From: Chiloscyllium plagiosum
Taxonomy: Eukaryota
DNA: 20,000 nucleotides
Assembly (NCBI RefSeq): GCF_004010195.1
Contig: NC_057755.1
Span: forward strand, 12,448,127-12,468,126
Reading direction: 5' to 3'
The position numbers and the translations under genes were made by a program. Position 1 is the stretch's first letter. Each line of letters starts with the position of its first letter. The notes beneath the pieces were generated by a model. It saw nothing but the letters and a program-made list of their open reading frames with translations. It did no database searches and was not told where the DNA came from. This document shows positions 1 to 20,000 of the stretch, one piece after another.

Positions 1-96
1 CACAGGAGAATGTGTAAACTCCACACAGGCAGTCAACCGAGGTTGGAATCGAACCTGGGACCCTGGTGCTATGAGGCACTGAGCCACCGTGCCGCC
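1..96 (-). mobile_element. HE1-type (V-SINE) tRNA-derived SINE, 5' part, runs off window start
   Basis: Reverse complement reads GGCGGCACGGTGGCTCAGTG...CAGGTTCGATTCCAACC...GACTGCCTGTGTGGAGTTTACACATTCTCC (A box partly deleted, B box present); homologous to the copies at 6310 and 10562. Confidence 0.85.
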
Positions 97-97
97 G

Positions 98-330
98 TGG
101 AAAGTTCTTTATGCAGCGGTGGTGGTTACCTAGAAAGCATTGCCAGCAGAGGTGGTAGAGGCGCACACGATAACGTCATTTAAGATGTATATAGACAGAT
201 ACGAGAAGGGACAGGGAGCAGAGGGGTACAGATCCTTAGAAAATGAGTGAAGGTTTAGATAGAGGCTTGGAGGGCTGACAGGCCTGTTCCTGTGCTATAA
301 TTTTCTCTGTTCTTCATTGTTCTTTGTTCT
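98..330 (+). mobile_element. CR1 LINE 3' end fragment
   Basis: Degenerate CR1 ORF2 C-terminus and 3' UTR ending GGCCTGTTCCTGTGCTATAA...TTGTTCTTTGTTCT microsatellite-like tail. Confidence 0.7.
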
Positions 331-2775: not shown

Positions 2776-3898
2776 ATGGAAAGCTTTATGAAAGGGAAAT
2801 AAAGTTTAACACACCGACTGGAGTCTTTTGAGGATGTAACTAGCATAATAGAAAAAAAAGAGAAACAGTGGATGTATTTGAATTTTCAGAAAGCTTTTGA
2901 TAAAATCTTCGACAAGAGCTACATACACATGGAATTGGGAATAATGTACTGGAATGGATTGAGAATTGATTAGTAGACAGTGGTGATTAGTGTGTACTGC
3001 AGGGTTCAGTGCCTGGACTCCAGCTATTCACAATATATATATGAGTGTTTTGGATGAAAGAACCAAATGTAATATTTCCAAGTTTGCTGACGATGCAAAA
3101 GTAAGAGAAACTGTGACTAATAAGGAGTAAGTAAAGAGGCTTCCAGGTCATTTGGACAAGTTGTGAGTGCACAAATGCATGACAGATATAGTATAACATG
3201 GATCAATGTGAAGTTATCCAATTCAGTAGGTAACACAGAATAGCAGCATATTATTTAAACAGTGATAGATTGAAAAATGCACTGAAAGCAAACAAGCAAG
3301 TATATTAGCAAGACAAATGATATGTTGGCATTTAATCTTTCCTTTATTGATTTGAACACAGGAGCAAGGAAGTTAGCTTTGCTACACAGGACCTTAGTGA
3401 GATCACACCTGGATTACTATGTGCAGTTTTGGTCTCCACATCTAACAAAAGGTACACCAGGCCTGTACTTACTGGAATCTCAAAGAATGACAGGGGACCT
3501 CATTGAATTGTATAAAACTTTGACAGGGCTGGACAGACTGGATATAGGGATGATGTTCCACCTGTCTTGGGGGCAGGGATTGGTGGTAGTGATGAAGGTT
3601 TAGATCAAGAGGCTATGGTCTCAGGAAATGCATCAAACCATTTCAGTTTGAGATGAGGAGACGTTTCTTTTTAGAGGGTGGTGAACCTGTGACATCCTCT
3701 ACTATATAAGGCTGTGGATGCTTAAAGAAAATATGAACAAATTTCTAGACACCAAATGCATCAATGGATATCAGGAAAGAGTGGGAGTATGGTACTGAGA
3801 TACAGGATTAATCCTGATCATAATGAATGGCGCAGCAGGCAGAATGGGCTGAATGGCCTATTCTTATTCCTTTTTTCTGTCTTCCACATTTCCATGTT
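2776..3898 (+). mobile_element. Older, more diverged CR1 RT/3' fragment
   Basis: Degenerate xFQKAFDK, LQGSVPG, SKFADDAK, LVRSHLDYYVQFWSP and CR1 3' UTR (GAATGGCGCAGCAGGC...GAATGGCCTATTCTTATTCC). Confidence 0.85.
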
Positions 3899-4278: not shown

Positions 4279-4487
4279 ATTTGGAGATGCCGGTGTTGGA
4301 CTGGGGTGTACAAAGTTAAAAATCACACAACACCAAGTTATAGTTCAATATAGGTTTAATTCGGAGCACTGCTCCTTCATCAGGTGGTTGATAAAGGAGG
4401 ACCTGATGAAGGAGCGGCGCTCCGAAAGCTAGTGCTTCCAATTAAACCTGTTGGACTATAACCTGGTGTTGTGTGATTTTTAACTTT
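4279..4487. mobile_element. Non-coding Penelope-type pLTR fold-back mini-element carrying hammerhead motifs
   Basis: Inverted arms 4311-4385 and 4401-4488, plus a ~30-nt extension (4279-4310); flanked by the 13-bp direct repeat GATGACTTTTATG (4266-4278) / GATGAATTTTATG (4488-4500). Confidence 0.8.
4400..4435 (+). ncRNA. Minimal type-I hammerhead ribozyme motif (Penelope-associated)
   Basis: CUGAUGA (4403-4409), A, stem II GGAGC-GGC-GCUCC (4411-4423), GAAA (4424-4427), palindromic AGCU helix III, NUH = CUA with predicted cleavage after 4431; short stem I (AC/GU). Confidence 0.7.
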
Positions 4488-5004
4488 GATGAATTTTATG
4501 TCATTTACACCTATTGATACATATTAAAGGAGAAGAGATCCAACGCTAATCATTGGAGAAGCACCTATCTATGACACATTTCAATCTGAGAAACAACCAT
4601 CAATTACTGCACTCTGCTTTTTGCCCTTTCATACCCACACTGCCGTTGCCCCATTAATTTCAAGGAATTAACTCTGAACAAACTTTGAGGATACAAGGCG
4701 AAGTGAGAGAGAGAGAGTGCAGGACCTGGATCAGAACAGGACAAAGAGCAAGGACACCAGAAGGAGAGTCACCGTGGCCATCAGAGAGCCTGCAGATCGT
4801 GAGGTTGAAACTGATTAAAAGTTGGCATCAGCAAAAGGAGAGGAATTGATTGTCCATCAGCCTAATGCTGTGGGAGCAATGAGTCTTTGCTAATATCATG
4901 GGAGCTGATTGATGGTTAATACCTCTTGCTTTGATACCAGCCAACATGACTGAAGGCTCCTAGGATATGAGCTGTGTTGTGGATTAGGAGCAACAACATG
5001 TGTG

Positions 5005-5292
5005 TTTTTTTAAATATAAAATTCTGAAGATGTAGGCATTGTTGGCTAGCCCAATATTTATTGCCCATTTCTGTGGGTCTGCAGCCACGCATAGATTAAG
5101 CAAGGAGAGAGTTCCATCCTTAAATGATGTCAGTGATGGATTTTTGCAACAATCAACAGGGATCACCATTAAGTTATTAAATTCAAATGTCATCATTCGC
5201 CATGGTGGGATTTGAACGCATTTCCCCAGAGTATTGGCTGAGGGTTCTGGATTGTTGGTCCAATGACATTGCCACAACAACACTTCCTACCC
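5005..5292 (-). mobile_element. SacSINE1/DeuSINE-like tRNA-derived SINE, old copy
   Basis: Reverse complement has a tRNA-like head with B box GCGTTCAAATCCC, a Deu-like body (..GCAGACCCACAG..), then tail ATGGGCAATAAATATTGGGCTAGCCAACAATGCCTACATC and an A-rich end; head aligns by eye with 9106-9370. Confidence 0.75.
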
Positions 5293-6309: not shown

Positions 6310-6620
6310 GGGCGGCACGGTGGCACAGTGGTTAGCACTGCTGCCTCACAGCGCAGAGACCCGGGTTCAATTCCCGCCTCAGGCGACTGACTGTGTGGAG
6401 TTTACACATTCTCCCCGTGTCTGCGTGGGTTTCCTCCGGGTGCTCCGGTTTCCTCCCACAGTCCAAAGATGTGCAGGTCAGGTGAATTGGCCATGTTAAA
6501 TTGTCCGTAGTATTAGGTAAGGGGTAAATGTAGGGGTATGGGTGGGTTGCGCTTCAGTGGGTCGGTGTGGACTTGTTGGGCCGAAGGGCCTGTTTCCACA
6601 CTGTAATGTAATCTAATCTA
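6310..6620 (+). mobile_element. HE1-type V-SINE, full length
   Basis: A box TGGCACAGTGG (6321-6331), B box GGTTCAATTCC (6364-6374), V-domain GTGGAGTTT..TTCTCCCCGTGTCTGCGTGGGTTTCCTCCGGGTGCTCCGGTTTCCTCCCACA, CR1-like tail GGGCCGAAGGGCCTGT..(AATCT)n; TSD AAACTC (6302-6307 / 6620-6625). Confidence 0.93.
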
Positions 6621-6659
6621 AACTCAGCAGATCTGGCAGCATTTGTGTGGAGAATTCAG

Positions 6660-8876: not shown

Positions 8877-9100
8877 TGGAGTCACAGGTCATAGAGATAT
8901 ACAGCATGGAAACAGACCCTTCAGTCCAACTCGTCCATCCTGACCAGATATCCCAACCTAATCTAGCCCCATTTTCCAGCAGTTGGCCCGTATCCCAATA
9001 AATCCTTCCCATTCACATACCCATCCAGATGCATTTTAAATGTTGTAATTGTACCAGCCTCCACCATTTCCTCTGGTAGCTCATTCCATACACACACCAC
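8877..9100 (-). mobile_element. CR1 3' UTR fragment
   Basis: Reverse complement ..TGGAATGAGCTACCAGAGGAAATGGTGGAGGCTGGTACAATTACAACATTTAAA..GGACTGAAGGGTCTGTTTCCATGCTGTATATCTCTATGAC. Confidence 0.85.
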
Positions 9101-9114
9101 AAACAGGGAGGCGA

Positions 9115-9189
9115 TGGCCTAGTAGTATTTTTGCTCGACTATTAATCCAGAAATCCAGAATTATGTTCTGAGGACTTGGGTTCAAATCC
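9115..9189 (+). promoter_or_regulatory. Pol III type-2 internal promoter (A and B boxes) at the LINE 5' end
   Basis: A box TGGCCTAGTAG (9115-9125), B box GGTTCAAATCC (9179-9189). Confidence 0.65.
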
Positions 9190-10561
9190 TGCCACAGCAG
9201 ATGGTGGAATTTGAATTCAATAAAAAAAATCTGGAATTAAGAGTCGACTGATGATCATGAAATCATTGTCAATTGTCAGAAAACCCATCTGGTTCACTAA
9301 TGTCCTTTAGTGGAGGAAATCTGCCATCCTTACCTGGTCTGGCCTACATGCAACTCCAGAGCCACAGCAATGTGGTTGACTCCTAACTACCCTCTGAAAT
9401 GGCCTAGTAAGGCACTCAGTTGTATCAATCGATAGAAAGTCACAACAAAACAATGAAACCGGACAGACCACCTGGCATCAGCCTTGGAACTCGAAAAGAC
9501 AACGGCAAAAACACAAACAGCCCTGTTGCCCATGTAAAGTCCTCCTTACCAACATCGGGAGGCTAGTGCCAAAATTGGGAGAGCTGTCTCACAGACTAGT
9601 CAAGGAACAGCCTGCCATAGTCATTCTTACGGAATCGTACCTTACAGATAACACCCCAGACACCACCATTACCATCCCTGGATATGTCTTATCCTACCGA
9701 CAGGACAGACCCAGCAGAGGTGGTGGCACAGTGGTATGTAGTCGGGAGGGAGTTGCCCTGGGAGTCCTTGACATTGACTCTGGATCCTATGAAGTCTCAT
9801 GGCTTCAAGTTAAAAGTGGACAAGAAAACCTTACTGGTTACCACGTACTGTCCTCCTTTGGCAGATGAATCAGTCCTCCTCCGTGTTGAACAATTCTTGG
9901 AGGAAGGACTGAGGGTGGCAAGGGTGCAAAATGTCCTCTGGATGGGGATTTCAATGTCCCACCACCAAGAGGGGCTCGGCAGCAGGTCGATTCCTATAGG
10001 TTATAATTGCTAGATTGGGTCTGCAGCAGGTGGTGAAGGATCCAACAAGAGGATAAAAACATACTTGACCTCATCCTTACTAATCTGCCAGCTGCAGAAG
10101 CATCTGTCCATACAGTATAGGTAAAAGCGACCACTGCACTGTCCTTGTGGAGATGAAGTCCTGTCTTCACATTGAGAATAATCTCCATCGTGTTGTGTGG
10201 CACTATCACGGTGGTAAATGGGACAGACTTCAAACCGATCTAGCAGCTCAGGACTGGGTATCCATGAGGCACCGTGGGCCATCAACAGCAGCAGAACTGT
10301 ACTCCAGCACAATCTACAGCCTCATGGCCTGGCATATCCCCCACTCAACCATTACCATTAAGCCAGGGGATTAACCAGGAGCAACATCAGGCATACCTAA
10401 AAATGAGGTGTCAACCTGGTGAAGCTACCAAACAGGACTACTTGTGTAGTAAGCAGCATACACAGCAAGTGATAAACAAAGCTAAGCGATTCCACAATCA
10501 ATGGATCAGATCTAAGCTCTACAGTCCTTCCACATCCAGTTGTGAGTGTTGGTGGACAATT

Positions 10562-10878
10562 GGTGGCACGGTGGCTCAGTGGTTAGCACTGCTGCCTCAC
10601 AGCACCAGAGATGCGGGTTCAATTCCTGCCTCAGGTGACTGACTGTGTGGAGTTTGCATGTTCTCCCCGTGTCTGCGTGGGTTTCCTCCGGGTGCTCCGG
10701 TTTCCTCCCACAGTCCAAAGATGTGCAGGTCAGGTGAATTGGCCATGCTAAATTGCCCGTAGTGTTAGGTAAGGTGTAAATGTAGGGGCATGGGTGGGTT
10801 GCGCTTTGGCGGGGCGGTATGGACTTGTTGGGCTGGAAGGGCCTGTTTCCACACTGTAATGTAATCTAATCTAATCTA
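10562..10878 (+). mobile_element. HE1-type V-SINE, full length, nested in the LINE
   Basis: Highly similar to 6310-6620 (A box TGGCTCAGTGG, B box GGTTCAATTCC, (AATCT)n tail); the LINE reading WWTI|KQLTGGGG resumes on the far side. Confidence 0.93.
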
Positions 10879-13011
10879 AACAACTCACTGGAGGAGGAGG
10901 CTCCACAAATATTCCCCTCCTCAATGACGGAGGAGCCATCAGTGCAAAAGATAAGGCTGATGAATTTGCAACAACCTTCAGTCAGAAGTACTGAGTGGAT
11001 GATCCATCTCGGGCTCCTCCAGTGGTCCCCAGTTTCACAGATACCAGTCTCCATCCAATTCAATTCACTCCACATGATATCAAGAAGCGACTGTGGGCAC
11101 TGGATACTGCAAAGGCAATAGGCCCGAAGACGTGTGTGCCAGAACGTGCCCCTCCCTTAGCCAAGCTCTTCCAGTACAGTTACAGCACTGGCATCTACCC
11201 AACAATGTGGAAAACTACCCAGGCATGTCCTGTACACAAAAAGCAGGACCAATCCAACCGAGCCAATTACCGCCCAATCAGTCTACTCTTTACCATCAGT
11301 AAAGTAATATAAGGGGTCATCAACAATGATATCAAACAGCACCTGCTCAGCAATAACCTGCTCAGTGATGCCCAGTTTGGGTTTCACCAAGATCACTCAG
11401 CTCCTGATCTCATTACAGCCTTGGTTCAAACATGGACAAAACAGCTGAATTCCAGAGGGGAGGTGAGAGTGACAGCCCTTGACATCAAGGCCATAATCAA
11501 CTGAGTATGGCATCAGGGAGCCCTGGCAAAACTGGAATTAGTGGCTATCACGAGGCAAATACTTCACTGGTTAGAATTATACCTGGAACAAAGGAAGGTG
11601 GTTGTGGTTGTGGAGGGTCAGTCATCTCAGCTCCAGGACACCTCTGCAGGAGTCCCTCAGGGTAGAGTCCTAGACCCAACAATCTTCAGCTGCTTCATCA
11701 ACGACCTTCTCTCTGTCATAAGGCCAGAGGTCAGAATGTTCGCTGATGATTGCACCATTCGTGGTTTAGCACCATTTGTGGTTCTTCAGATACTGAAGCA
11801 GTCCGTGCTCAAATGTAACAAGATCTGGACAATATCCAGGCTTGGGCCACAAGTGGCAAGTAACATTCGTGCCACACAAATACCAGACAATGAAAAGCAC
11901 TCTAGCCACTGTCCCTTGACATTCAACTGTATTACCATCACTGAATCCCCCACTGTCAACATCCTTGGGGTTACCATTGACCAGAAACTCAACTGGACTC
12001 ACCACATAAACACAGTGACTACAAGAGCAAGTCAGAGACTAGGGATACTGTGGCGAGTAACTCACCTCCTGACACCCCAAAGTCTATCCACCATCTACAA
12101 AGCACAAGTCAAGAATGTGATGGAAACTCCCTACTTGCCTGGATGGGTGCAGCTCCAACAACACTCAAGAAACTTGAAACCATCCAGAACAAAGCAACCT
12201 CCTTGACTGGCACCATATCTACAAATATTCAATTCCTCCACCACCGGCGCTCAGTAGCAGCAGTAGATGCACTGCAGAAATTTACCAACGATCCTTAGAC
12301 AGCACCTTCCAAATGGCAGAGTTGATTACATACCTTGCGTCAGTTTTATGGTACAACACACTAATAGCATTCCAAAAATACGAAAGAGAGGAGGAGATAA
12401 ACAAAAACTTGCATAAGAGAAAACCTACTGGGAAACTGGTGGGGCTAAAGGCTGATTGGTCTCCTGGAAATGATAGGTTGCATCCTTGGACATTTAAGGA
12501 AGTAGGTACAGAGGTAATAAGTGCGCTGGTAGTAACATTCCAAGAATCATTAGATTCTGTGAAAGCCCCAGAGGATTGGAGAACAGCAAATTAAACTGCC
12601 TTCTTAAAAAAAGGAAAGAGGCAAAAACAAAATGTGTCATTATGGAATTCTTGGTCACAGATGGTTGTAAAGATTGTATTGTTAAGTATATTGAGGACTG
12701 AGATAAATAGATTTTTACTTAGTAAGGGAACCAAGGGTTATTGGAACAAGGCACAGAAGTGGAAATGATCAACTATGATCTCACTGAATGGCAGAGCAGA
12801 CTTGATAGACTCAAATACCTGCTTCTGTTCCTCTCTCTTATGAACTCATTAAAAGATCCCACATGTGCGTTTCCCACCTCCTGATGTGAAATTAGATTAA
12901 TGTATTGCTACATTCCAAATTGGTACAGCATTATTGTTATTTTACACAAACGTGTATTTTATTCCTATATATCCACAGACAGTTTGTGAAATGAATGTAT
13001 TGTGATTTTAG

Positions 13012-13107
13012 GGCATTCTTATTAGCTGGACCAAAGGCTTCACTGCCACTGGTGTGGAAGGACAGGAAGTTATTTCTCTGTTGAAAGAAGCTATTACAAG
13101 AAATGGA
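13012..13107 (+). CDS. Hexokinase-family gene, internal 96-bp exon (equivalent to exon 5 or 13 of HK1-3/HKDC1, exon 5 of GCK)
   Basis: ttttag|GGC...GGA|gtgagt; phase 0-0; translates [32 protein letters not shown] with the hexokinase WTKGF glucose-binding motif; 96-bp size matches the conserved HK exon. Confidence 0.96.
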
Positions 13108-13193: not shown

Positions 13194-13293
13194 GAGTTGG
13201 ATTTAGACATTGTGGCACTTCTGAATGACACGGTGGGAACTATGATGTCTTGTGCTTATGAGCATCCTAACTGTGAGATTGGAATGATTGTAG
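13194..13293 (+). CDS. Hexokinase-family gene, internal 100-bp exon (equivalent to exon 6 or 14)
   Basis: ttgcttctag|GAG...GTA G|gtagga; phase 0-1; translates [33 protein letters not shown](G) with the catalytic NDT aspartate; 100-bp size matches the conserved HK exon; 86-bp intron at 13108-13193. Confidence 0.96.
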
Positions 13294-13408: not shown

Positions 13409-14231
13409 TTTTTATTCAGTCATGGTATGTGGGCATCGTTGCTTTGGCCAGCAATTTTTTTCTATGCCAAATTGCCTGTGAGAAAATGGAGGTGAGCTGC
13501 CTTCTTGCAATGCTGCAGTCCATATAGGTACATTTCAATAGTGCACAATCACTACAGATCTATTACAGAGAGAGTTCTCAGGTTTTGACCCAGGGATATT
13601 AAAGGAACAGTGGTGTATTTCCATGTCAGGATGGTGAGTGGCTTAGAAGGGAACTTGCAGAAGGTTATATTCCCATGTATCTGCTCCCCTTGTCCTTCTA
13701 GATGATGGTGGTCATGGGTTTGGAAAGCATTGTCTCAGGAGCTTTGATGAGCTGGTTTGTCCCAGGTGATGCAAAGCTTCGAGTGTTTTTGGAGCTGCAC
13801 TCATTCAGGTAGGTGGACAGTATTCCATCACACTCCTGATTTGTGCCTTGTAGATGGTCAACCCAAAGCCAGATATTGTACAAGCCTTGTTGGATTTGGA
13901 CATGGAAGGCTTCTGTACCTGAGGAATCACAAATGTCTAATAGTCTAATCATTAACAAGCATCCTCACTTCTGATTTTATGATGGGGGAAAGGTTATTGA
14001 TGAAACAGCAGGTTATGGTATTGTCTTGACACTACCCCAGGAGGTGTCCTGGAGCTGAGATGATTGACCTCTTATAATCACAACCATCTTCCTTTGTGCT
14101 AGGTATGATTCTAACCAATGAAGAGGTTTCCCCTGATTGCACTGAGTCTGGTTTTATTACAACTCCTTGATTCTACACTTGCATCAAATGTAACCTTAAT
14201 GTCAAGGACAGTCACCTCGCCTCTGGAATTG
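13409..14231 (-). mobile_element. 3' portion of the same CR1/L2-group LINE family as 9106-12312, with tail
   Basis: Reverse complement aligns with 11447-11850 and 12090-12312 (e.g. TCATCTCAGCTCCAGGACACCTC, CCATCTACAAxGCACAA); ends GCTGGCCAAAGCAACGATGCCCACATACCATGACTGAATAAAAA. Confidence 0.85.
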
Positions 14232-14320: not shown

Positions 14321-14545
14321 TGGATTAGAGTGATGCTGGAAAAGCACAGCAGTTCAGGCAGCATCCGAAGACCAGGAAAATCGATGTTTCGGGCAAAAGC
14401 CCTTCATCAGGAATTGAGGCAGAGTGCCTGCAGGGTGGAGAGATAAATGAGAGGAGGATGGAGGTGGGGAGAAAGTAGCATAGAGTACAATAGGTGAATG
14501 GGGGTGGGATGGAGGTGATAGGTCAGAGAGGAGGGTGGGGGAGGG
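14321..14545 (-). mobile_element. Penelope-like pLTR fragment
   Basis: GCTGGAAAAGCACAGCAGTTCAGGCAGCATC parallels the terminus at 6280-6650 (GTTGGAAAAACTC/AGCAGATCTGGCAGCAT); includes a hammerhead-like core and a pyrimidine-rich tract on the minus strand. Confidence 0.75.
14378..14415 (-). ncRNA. Minimal hammerhead motif, probably damaged by CpG decay
   Basis: Reverse complement AAUUC-CUGAUGA-A-GGGC-UUUU-GCCC-GAAA-CAUC-GAUUU; core and stem II intact, helix III reads ACAU instead of palindromic ACGU. Confidence 0.6.
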
Positions 14546-14957: not shown

Positions 14958-15994
14958 AGTCATAGATTCATAGAATCCTACAGCATGGAGACAGGTCCTT
15001 TGGCCCAAATTGCTCCATGCCAACAAGATTCTTGTCCATCCACAGTAACCCCATTTCCCTGCACTTGGCCCATATCCTTTTACACCTTTCCTATCCATGT
15101 ATCTGTCCAAATGCCTTTTCAATGTTGTTAATGTACCTGCCCCAACCACTTCCACTGGCAGCTTATTACATATGCGTACCACCCTCTGTGTAAAATATTG
15201 CCCCTCAGTTCCCTTTTATTCCTTCCCCTCTAACTTTAAACTGATGCCTTCTAGTCCTTGATTCCCCAGCCATGGGAAAAAGCATTCACCCTGTCCATGC
15301 CTCTCATGATCTTATACACTTTGATAAAATCCCCCCTCAGTCTCCTATGGTCTAAAGAAAAAAAGAAGTCCTAGCTTGTCCAACCTCTCCCTGTAACTCA
15401 GACCATTGAGTCCAGTCCTTGTAAATTTCCTCTGCACTCTTACCAGTTTAATAACATCCTTACTATAACAAGGTGACCAAAACTGAATACAATATTCTAA
15501 CTGTGGCCTCCCTAATGTCCTACATAACTGCAACATAATTTCCCAACTTCTATACTCAATGGCCTGACTAGAGGCTAGTGTGCCAAAAGCCTTCTTTACT
15601 GCCCTGCCTACCTGTGACTTCACTTTCAGAGAACCGTGTACCTGAACTCCAAGGTCCCTCTGCTCCACTACACTCCTTAAGGCCCTACCATTCACCATGA
15701 AATCCCTACCTTGATTTGACTTTCCAAAATTCAAGACCTCACACTTATCTATATTAAGCTCCATTTGCCATTTCATGGCCCACTTCCCTAGCTGATCGAG
15801 ATCCTTGTGTAATTTCTGAAAACCTTCCTCACTGTCCATGATACTGCCTATTGTAGTGTCATCTGCAAACTTACTAATCATACCTTGTATATTCTCATCC
15901 AAATCATTGATTTCGATAACAAACAGTAATGGGCCCAGCACTGACCCCCGAGGCACTCCACTAGTCACAGACCTCCAGGCTGACAAGTGTCCTT
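14958..15994 (-). mobile_element. CR1 LINE 3' ~1 kb (left arm of inverted pair)
   Basis: ORF 15345-16031(-): [48 protein letters not shown]; 3' tail GGATTCTATGAATCTATGACT. Confidence 0.93.
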
Positions 15995-16015
15995 TCAATT
16001 TTACATGATCAATGA

Positions 16016-17205
16016 GTGTGAGGGAGATCATGACTCACAAATTTGTTAGAGTTCTTTCAGGAAGTGCCCAGGAAGGTTGACGAAGGCAGGGTGGTAGACA
16101 TAGTCTATATGGATTTCAGTAAGGCCTATGATAAAGTTCCAATTGGTAAATTGCTCCGGAAGGTTAGATTGCATGGAGTCCAGGGCGAGCTTGCAAATTG
16201 GATACAAAATTGGCTTGATGGCAGAAAGCAGAGGGTAATAGTGGAAGGATGCTTGTCGGACTGGAAGCCTGTGATTCGTGATGTGCCTCGGGGGTCAGTG
16301 CTGGGCCCTTTGCTGTTTGTTATCGAAATCAATGATAATGATGAGAATGTACAAGGCATGGTTAGTAAGTTTGCAGATGACGCTAAAATAAGCGGTATCA
16401 TGGGCAGTGAGAAAGGTTGTCAGAAATTTCAGCAGGATCTTGATCATTTGGGGAAGAGAGCTGAGAAATGGCAAATGGACTTTAATATAGATAAGTGTGA
16501 GGTCTTGCATTTTGGAAAGTCAAATCAAGGTAGGAGTTTCATGGTGAACGGTAAGGCTTAAGGAGCGTAGTGGAACAGAGGGACCTTGGAATTTAGGTAC
16601 ACGGTTCTCTGAAAGTGGAGTCACAGGTAGACAAGGCAGTGAAGAAGGCTTTTGGCATAGTGGCCTTCAGTCAGACCATTGAGTATAGAAGTTGGGAAAT
16701 TATGTTGCAGTTTTGTAGGGCAGTGGTGAGGCTACACTTGAAGTATTGTGTTCAGTTTTGGTCACAAGGATGTTATTAAACTGGAAAGAGTGCGGAAAGA
16801 AATTTACAAGGATATTGCCAGGACTCTATGATCTGATTTTTTTTAGGAGAGGTTGGACGAGTTAGGACATTTTTCTTTAGAGCACAGGAGACTAAGGGGA
16901 CAACTTAGAGAAGTGTATAAGACCGTGAGAGGCATGGATAGGATCAATGAATTCAGTCTTTTCCCAGGGGTGGGGAACCGAGGACTAGAGGGCATCAGTT
17001 TAAGGTGAGAGGGTGGTACGCATATGTAATGAGCTGCCAGTGGAAGTGGTTGAGGTGAATGTAGTAACAACATTTAAAAGGCATTTGGACAAACACATGG
17101 ATAGGAAAGGTGTAAAAAGATATGGGCCTAGTGCAAGAAAATAGGACGACATGGACCAGTTTGGACCAAAGGGCTTATCTCCGTTCTATAGGACTCTATG
17201 ACTTT
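16016..17205 (+). mobile_element. CR1 LINE 3' ~1.2 kb (right arm of inverted pair)
   Basis: ORF 16043-16561: [47 protein letters not shown]; tail TATAGGACTCTATGACT. Confidence 0.93.
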
Positions 17206-18649: not shown

Positions 18650-19470
18650 GAACATAAACATAGGACTTAGAACATTACAGCACAATACAGGCCCTTTGGC
18701 CCTCAAAGTTGCACCAATCTGTGAAACTAATCTGATGCCTATCTATCCTACACCATTCTATTCTCATCCATATGCCTGTCTAAAGACTATTTAAATGCTC
18801 TTAAAGTTTGAGAGTCGACTGCTGTTGCAGGCAGTTCTTTCCACGCCCCTACAACTCTCTGAATAAAGAAACTACCTCTGACTCCTATCACCCCTCAATT
18901 TAAAGCCATGTCCCCTCGTGCTAGTCATTGCCATCTGAGGAAAAAGGCTCTCACTGTCCAACCTATCTAACTCTCTGATTATCTTACACCTGACACTTTT
19001 CTGCATTAAACTCCATTTGCCACCACTCAGCCCAGTTCTCCAGCTTATCTATGTCTCTCTGTACCTACAACATCCTTCGGCACTATGCACAACTCTACTG
19101 ACCCTTAGTGTCATCCACAAATTTACTAACCCAACCTTCTATGCCCTCATCCAGGTCATTTGTAAAAATGACAAACAACAGTGGACCCAAAACAGATCCT
19201 TGCAGTACCCCACTAGTAACTGAACTCCAGGATGAATATTTCCCATCAACAACCACCCTCTGTCTTCTTTCAGCTAGCCCAGTTCTGATCCAAACTGCTA
19301 GATCACCATCAATCCCACGCCTCTGTTCCTCTACACTGTCGAGGATCCTACCTTTAACCCTGTAATCTGCAATAAAATTCAACCTTCCAAAGTGAATCAT
19401 TTCACACTTTTCCAGGTTGAACTCCATCTGCAACTTTATCAGCCCAGTTCTGCTTCTTGTCAATGTCCCA
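18650..19470 (-). mobile_element. CR1 fragments (RT plus 3' UTR), internally deleted and out of order
   Basis: ORF 19095-19463(-) joins [19 protein letters not shown] directly to the normally upstream [30 protein letters not shown]1 tail GGGCCAAAGGGCCTGTATTGTGCTGTAATGTTCT at about 18665-18705. Confidence 0.85.
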
Positions 19471-19471
19471 T

Positions 19472-20000
19472 TTTTTTCAATTTCAAAAATATACTTTATT
19501 CATAAAATACTTTAATGGTCTGTACAGTTGGACATGCCATACATATGTAAACATTCCATTTGTTTGCATATTGAAACAGAGTTACCATTCCTATTTACAG
19601 GTCTGTACGATTACATTTTTAGCTGAGGCGTCAGCAGAGCCCAAATGACTCCTTGGGCCCCCTGTTCTTCTTTAGGCAGGCAGATGTTACAAGGTGGTTT
19701 TTCCCCACCGCGCCTTGGCGGCAGCTGCCCCAAGCTTCAGCGCGTCCCTCAAAACGTAGTCCTGGACCTTGGAATGTGCCAGTCTGCAACACTCAGTCGG
19801 GGTCAACTCCTTTAACTGGAAGATCAACAGGTTTCGGACCGCCCAGGGAGCGTCCTTCACCGAGTTGATGATCCTCCAGGCACAGTTGATGTTCGTCTCG
19901 GTGTGCGTCCCGGGGAACAGGCCGTAGAGCACGGAGTCCCGCGTCACGGCGCTGCTCGGGACGAACCTCGACAAACATCACTGCATTCCTCTCCAGACTT
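19472..20000 (-). mobile_element. Tx1/L1-clade LINE 3' end (ORF2 C-terminus, 3' UTR, poly-A), runs off window end
   Basis: ORF 19687-19974(-) VLYGLFPG..WRIINSVKDAPWAVRN..CCRLAHSKVQDYVLRD..KARWG* resembles the Tx1-type ORF2 end; AATAAA then A7 on the minus strand at 19472-19500; CpG-rich, so likely young. Confidence 0.8.

Follow-up and report, generated by a model that had tools for sequence, protein, structure and literature searches.

A tRNA-type head at the 5′ end of elasmobranch Zenon LINEs and a SINE made of the two ends of the LINE

The received view is that Pol II transcribes LINEs and Pol III transcribes SINEs (PMC10886601, PMC5786205). The closest described elements are the Zenon LINEs of elasmobranchs (CarCar, HypSab, RhiTyp, ScyCan, and SquAca), which share the 5′ sequence studied here, measure about 3.3 kb, encode APE and RT without an ORF1, and end in an A-rich tail (PMC13343379). 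Since all Zenon elements lack an ORF1 and carry a poly-A tail according to the same source, the missing ORF1 is nothing special. The available parts of PMC13343379 leave the A/B-box head, the SINE derivative, the T-run deficit, and the out-of-frame AUG unremarked, and the string "tRNA" has no occurrence in its text and supplement.

Several other systems resemble parts of this architecture. The Persaeus SIDE of Lepidoptera is likewise made up of its Zenon partner's 5′ and 3′ ends, joined by internal deletion, but it is described as having neither tRNA likeness nor a Pol III promoter (PMC6740152), whereas here the boxes stand on the LINE's own 5′ end and the derivative is therefore indistinguishable from a SINE2. 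In the SINE bodies derived from bipartite LINEs (Kojima 2018, PMC5786205), the SINE's central portion is shared with a LINE 5′ UTR, as here; in the cases given, however, the tRNA head was added after the deletion and the only donors found are RTE and Vingi, unlike the present head and body, which sit on an autonomous CR1-group LINE. The same source notes in passing that RTE-1_DAn has a sequence resembling a tRNA. Cassandra, Helenus, and Ajax (TRIMp3; PMC10886601) are retroelements other than classic SINEs with a Pol III promoter taken from a small RNA gene, but they are short, non-coding LTR elements, whereas the Zenon considered here is 3.3 kb long and encodes its enzymes. Finally, the DeuSINEs (SacSINE1, LmeSINE1, and AmnSINE1) have in common with our element a tRNA-type head, a conserved body, a LINE-derived tail, and an occurrence in sharks; they differ from it in that here the body appears to lack a canonical Deu domain, the tail is that of Zenon and not L2-2_CM/CR1-4_DR-like, and the element is near-absent from chimaera.

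Anatomy of the LINE and its 5′ junction

The window, that is, the whole stretch of 20,000 nucleotides of Chiloscyllium plagiosum DNA that was analyzed, is repeat-rich DNA of elasmobranch type, full of nested insertions, with one head-to-LINE junction within it. It is probably intronic to a hexokinase gene, and LINE copy 1, which is located upstream of hexokinase exons, has the sense orientation. Copy 1 is a decayed copy of an elasmobranch Zenon LINE (CR1 group) of about 3.3 kb with one APE-RT frame (Table 1). It is colinear with single proteins of 891–1112 aa, 21 of 24 of which are found on contigs of 3.1–4.4 kb, and no ORF1 is present; its own frame is broken at several places and its 3′ end is gone at about 12312. 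The older copy 2 (823 nt) is 68–77% identical to copy 1 and ends in AATAAA and a short A run, that is, a poly-A tail as in Zenon; such an end is also seen in Pol II LINEs. In an RT tree (FastTree; 65 RT pieces, no named Zenon among them), neither the window's CR1 nor fish L2/Rex-like proteins grouped with copy 1, which fell instead among unnamed single-ORF proteins (support 0.89–0.97). Among the published consensi compared, that of the whale shark looks closest. An LTR-like terminal repeat formed by the head and copy 2 was rejected, as 223 of 500 shuffles were as good.

Table 1. Features of the window
Feature	Position	Strand	Remarks
3′ fragment of CR1 LINE	8889..9100	-	Host of the Zenon insertion; presumably HER1-type
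5′ module common to LINE and SINE	9106..9396	+	tRNA-type head and conserved body; probably not a canonical Deu domain
A box	9115..9125	+	Pol III type 2 consensus pattern
B box	9179..9188	+	Pattern match; published family consensi nearer to consensus (by eye)
LINE-only linker	9397..9452	+	3′ end A-rich; multi-copy in related DNA runs
37-codon AUG frame	9453..9566	+	Overlaps the first part of the endonuclease frame but in a different phase
APE endonuclease region	9536..10371	+	Frameshifted; in-frame Arg/Lys-rich leader upstream without AUG
V-type tRNA SINE, 316 nt	10562..10877	+	Later insertion; 92% like the copy at 6311-6629; taken by us to be HE1
RT region and part of C-terminal region	10878..12312	+	RT itself 10878-12137; 3′ end and tail of copy 1 lost
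Old free SINE	5005..5292	-	Head and body as in the LINE, followed by LINE tail (5070-5030) and an A-rich end; further internal deletions
LINE copy 2, older, 5′-truncated	13409..14231	-	Tail (13473-13427), AATAAA/A-rich end

The search patterns for the A and B boxes were those of the Pol III type 2 consensus. The pair claimed for the head in an earlier note on this DNA was recovered with one mismatch in all and, leaving the three V-type SINE copies aside, ranks first in the window. ARAGORN and Rfam did not recognize the head as a tRNA; the term tRNA-type refers here to the two boxes. As the note had also stated, no SINE tail follows the body: the APE domain begins (K-V-L-L-T-N) only 140 nt past 9396, the end of the part shared with the SINE, which leaves no ORF1 between them. 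Nor is there another 5′ UTR, as 56 nt separate the SINE-shared part from the AUG.

Three DNA runs from three related organisms were aligned to the window at 80% likeness (100,338–121,731 contigs per run). In each run, 560–696 contigs switch to CR1 sequence at 9100, so the 5′ end of the element is fixed at 9101–9106. Among the 24 pieces listed, three diverged contigs from two organisms bridge the body, the linker, and the start of APE; they cover 9321–9580 (42 differences, no gap), 9343–9645, and 9355–9655, with 42–47 differences each. Linker positions carry other letters in common in 33–128 contigs per run, and the positions 9408, 9432, 9450, and 9451 do so in 68–128. No other 5′ sequence joined at 9400–9560 appeared among the 24 loose-end rows listed, beside which there were 6,513 further rows. 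In the whale shark, the gene models P0002, P0004, and P0016 read body or linker into APE.

The supplement of PMC13343379 lists 10 Zenon consensi, the first 400 letters of each of which were compared by eye with 9106–9550. The head stands at the start of all seven elasmobranch consensi (five species, sharks and a ray; 2,886–3,314 characters) and at the start of none of the three hagfish and coelacanth consensi. Long Zenon copies number hundreds to thousands with few intact (3/612, 0/2313, and 1/1419; Table S3 of PMC13343379). Taken together, the multi-species consensi and the bridging contigs identify the element as an elasmobranch Zenon with the head as its normal 5′ end, and we regard this architecture, a Zenon LINE with a tRNA-type head as standard, as practically certain. 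The note's reading of a single-ORF LINE with a SINE-type tRNA head as its regular 5′ end thus stands. A one-off junction of a 5′-truncated LINE and a SINE, for which the solitary junction amid nested insertions might speak, has a negligible probability in view of the bridging contigs and the whale-shark gene models, and is refuted by the consensi, in which there is likewise neither an ordinary ORF1 nor a different 5′ UTR.

Wider searches gave no further head-bearing relatives. Viral contigs yielded no matches, and a metagenome scan with a shark APE alignment gave 66 pattern matches, none of which was confirmed. Related LINE loci (the best 80 of 498 confirmed in a metagenome scan; 24–37% identical in RT) contained neither head nor SINE (best blastn E 0.23), and ARAGORN found no tRNA in the 42 of these 80 that were tested. 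Loose A/B pairs were present in 10 of the 54 related loci with upstream DNA; the two that were inspected (L017 and L026) look like chance.

Composition and identity of the SINE

The head and the free SINE of the window agree in 140 of 190 alignment columns, a score that none of 2000 shuffles reached; the tail of this SINE matches that of copy 2 in 31 of 41, a score that 8 of 2000 reached. One unrelated stretch scores equally in a whole-window scan, so the tail match is weak from the window alone; the contig data make it strong. In the three DNA runs, 720, 568, and 607 contigs exit the head at 9396, and the consensus of the exiting sequence (30 letters) agrees with the copy 2 tail at 23 of 30 positions, with nothing between (counted by eye). 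The contigs pass from 9396 directly into the LINE tail, and the note's equation of the SINE with the head and tail of the LINE therefore holds: the abundant SINE is the first 291 and the last ~65 letters of the LINE, joined directly. The window's free SINE lacks a further stretch across the head-tail seam, and contig depth on the SINE side is far greater than in the linker. Consisting solely of a LINE's 5′ and 3′ ends, the short element is like a SIDE or bipartite non-autonomous LINE, but it carries A and B boxes, unlike a SIDE as defined for Persaeus, which has no Pol III promoter.

We consider it probable that the SINE is an internal-deletion derivative of the LINE and was not its donor. The reverse order, in which a SINE with head, body, and tail existed first and the LINE took head and body by recombination, would fit either polymerase. 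It finds some agreement in the derived state of the head (hagfish and coelacanth Zenons are headless, and no head was found in the 80 related loci), in the excess of SINE-side over linker depth, and in the frequency of module exchange among such elements (PMC5499810 and PMC5786205). In the SINE, however, body and tail adjoin with no private sequence between them, so that a switch would need an exact hit; furthermore, no SINE with the Zenon-head body was seen outside elasmobranchs, and Zenon-matching DNA amounts to only 179 kb in chimaera. We therefore think this order unlikely. Neither an ancestral SINE nor an intermediate form turned up, and the order of events is inferred.

The note had further described the body as Deu-domain- or SacSINE1-like and had suggested that the LINE might shed light on where the Deu domain came from. 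Three conserved Deu motifs were drawn from the Deu alignment in the supplement of PMC7245038, and with up to 3 mismatches none of the three had a match in the window (chance expectation 0.04–0.28). A decayed true Deu copy could miss each motif, and their absence alone is no proof. By eye, nothing in the body corresponds to the 5′ half of Deu, and 9280–9350 is weakly similar, with gaps, to the 3′ half of the alignment published for it. The tail of SacSINE1 is L2-type (L2-2_CM, CR1-4_DR-like), and this description sets it apart from the SINE here, whose tail is that of the Zenon LINE. SacSINE1-CM is present in 218,294 copies in chimaera (Callorhinchus milii), where Zenon consensi with the head match only 179,008 bases, as against 162–195 Mb in dogfish and whale shark; this comparison of abundance is an indirect one. 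A canonical Deu domain in the body and an identity of the SINE with SacSINE1 are thus not supported by motif, tail, or abundance. That the body is nevertheless the Deu domain of SacSINE1, with the LINE as its possible source, would be in keeping with the likeness at 9280–9350 and with the mobilization of Deu SINEs by CR1-Zenon in bivalves (PMC11481361), but it appears very improbable given the missing motifs and 5′ half, the L2-type tail, and the disparity in chimaera. Of the note's proposal that the LINE is the parent of the SINE, the composition from head and tail holds, whereas the bearing on Deu falls with the Deu identity; the head-bearing Zenon says nothing on Deu origin.

T runs, transcription, and translation

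Vertebrate Pol III terminates at four or more T. The coding strand of copy 1, of which T makes up 22%, contains no TTTT in 2,540 nt, against 15 such runs of A, 7 of C, and 6 of G. The expected number of TTTT was 4.5 under base shuffling (P = 0.008), 4.2 under uniform codon use (P = 0.007), and 2.8 under synonymous-codon shuffling (P = 0.04); under dinucleotide-preserving shuffling it was 2.5, and the deficit was not significant (P = 0.055). Across seven CR1 stretches of the window, TTTT occurs 37 times in 7,753 nt. All of the best 80 of the 498 related LINE loci have at least two (1.5–18 per kb), three related loci with 21–22% T have 4.1–6.0 per kb, and among the 68 of these 80 with a long open frame the lowest ratio of observed to expected TTTT is 0.36. 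Copy 2 has one TTTT run, which is not a significant deficit (P = 0.27–0.44). The sole T run in the head (9128) is private to copy 1, as 88–90% of contig depth has A at 9130, and by eye the first 400 letters of the seven elasmobranch Zenon consensi contain no TTTT. The T-run deficit is real against these controls, the comparison being of one decayed copy with distant controls.

The start of translation differs from that implied by the earlier note. The ATG at 9453, which it had placed before the APE+RT region, opens a frame of 37 codons that is closed by a stop at 9564–9566 and is out of phase with the endonuclease. Contigs of the related DNA runs show no indel at a level of at least 30% between 9222 and 9941. 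The AUG is present in six of the seven published elasmobranch consensi and, by eye, has the same phase in that of the stingray. The gene models P0007 and P0029 begin at this AUG and reach APE via frameshifts at differing places. The Arg/Lys-rich leader in the APE frame resembles the leaders of relatives and contains no AUG. Our guess is that translation of the enzyme starts through the short AUG frame, by a shift or by coupling.

What explains the observations best as a whole, in our view, is a Pol III-driven Zenon with a captured head from which the SINE arose by deletion, a reading that we hold with about even confidence; the same balance applies to its core, that the captured Pol III-promoter module may drive a 3.3-kb coding RNA; Pol III is not known to produce coding messages of that length. 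An ancestral Zenon would have gained the tRNA-type module in the shark/ray lineage, by template switch onto a SINE or a tRNA-derived RNA. The module would then serve as an internal promoter from which RNA polymerase III makes the full-length RNA, such use would select against TTTT terminators along the body, and the RNA would end, like that of SINEs, at a T run further downstream. Translation would be unconventional: the short AUG frame would give access to the enzyme frame by frameshift or coupling, or the start would be at a non-AUG codon; the protein would bind the tail stem-loop, and LINE and SINE would both be copied by target-primed reverse transcription. The SINE, born by internal deletion, would have been transcription-ready at birth. 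That all of this applies together, with the LINE transcribed by Pol III since before the shark/ray split, TTTT purged from 3 kb, an uncapped RNA, no in-frame AUG, and a SINE produced by a single deletion, is a tentative proposal from sequence that falls a little short of an even chance.

Among 1,852 RNA reads (some 2% of one single-cell poly-A run), there was no site of many molecule starts; 91% of the reads continue into other sequence, and transcripts of the element are not separable from intronic read-through. Pol III RNAs are uncapped and are thought to be short (PMC10886601), which speaks against the Pol III reading, as does the AATAAA-plus-A end that the tail shares with Pol II LINEs. 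In folding, the 355-nt leader surpassed every one of 100 shuffles (z = -3.0), whereas the head by itself did not exceed chance (z = -0.64) and forms no cloverleaf; tail folding in two decayed copies is no better than in shuffles.

Two other readings of the module have to be weighed. The LINE could be transcribed by Pol II as usual, the module being a 5′ UTR or a Pol II promoter with boxes kept because the SINE derivative and recombination with it need them, and the scarcity of T runs being a matter of base and dinucleotide composition. We find this doubtful, though it deserves serious consideration: the dinucleotide shuffle (P = 0.055) and the low T content of the strand would allow it, an AATAAA/poly-A end and the need of a coding RNA for translation agree with it, and Pol II transcription is what PMC10886601 states for non-LTR elements. 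Composition, however, leaves the related loci of the same T fraction with 4.1–6.0 TTTT per kb, the boxes are near-perfect in the LINE consensi of five species, and a conserved AUG out of frame is ill explained by capped scanning. Alternatively, the module could act as an RNA element in transcripts begun at host genes, its tRNA-like fold being cut to give the 5′ end or recruiting ribosomes without a cap. The stable folding of the leader, the lack of an in-frame AUG, the sense orientation of copy 1 upstream of the hexokinase exons, and the ribozyme-defined 5′ ends of other LINE clades (PMC5786205) would be compatible with such a role, but the head by itself is neither a cloverleaf nor better folded than chance, and the avoidance of T runs is left unexplained; we rate this as improbable.

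A LINE with a SINE-type 5′ end

Zenon masks 6.75% of the whale-shark genome and 4.37% of the dogfish genome, a share that we infer takes in the SINE copies. The annotation of this SINE is corrected in that it is not SacSINE1. A tRNA head on shark Zenon and a Pol III-transcribed coding LINE are both undescribed in the full texts searched, a body of literature that stops short of subscription papers, Repbase Reports, and Dfam. The tRNA-headed Zenon blurs the line between LINEs and SINEs and supplies a tangible path by which a LINE may become a SINE in one step, as judged from those texts the first for a CR1-group element with a tRNA head of its own. If transcription by Pol III is true, the element would be an instance from nature of a coding RNA several kilobases long made by Pol III, with cap-independent or frameshift translation.

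Length variation in the Zenon LINE and its SINE

Contigs of public DNA runs from related organisms, aligned to the window at 80% likeness, differ in length from copy 1, the decayed Zenon LINE of the CR1 group. At 10371-10376, copy 1 is without approximately 30-37 letters that these contigs have, and at 9153-9327 many of them skip 58-126 letters between the head end and the body. The skipping contigs would represent subfamilies of the SINE that joins the Zenon head and body to the Zenon tail, with a different or shorter spacer.

Other repeats in the window

The two full copies of the V-type SINE, a separate tRNA SINE, are 92% alike, and TTTT is absent from both.

Copies of the V-type tRNA SINE (CR1-type tail) in the window
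Position	Strand	Note
1-99	-	one of three window copies
6311-6629	+	full copy
10562-10877	+	full copy

Two CR1 copies (15050-16004 and 16235-17145) lie in opposite orientations, 81-88% complementary across ~0.9 kb around a 230-nt centre; the arrangement resembles that of an insertion made by twin priming or fold-back. A short, possibly Penelope-like element has 38-nt inverted arms (4311-4348 and 4451-4488; 95% complementary, spaced 102 nt apart), and related sequence was seen by eye near 14330-14420. The 3′ end of another LINE-like element, possibly L1/Tx1-like, occupies 19470-20000 (-); its tail is A-rich, and its open frame of 96 codons had no Pfam match.

Genic setting of the repeats

Two successive hexokinase exons were identified at 13012-13107 and 13194-13292 (+) (Pfam Hexokinase_1, E 3e-8 and 9e-6, respectively). 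The repeats flanking them are probably located within introns of a hexokinase gene.
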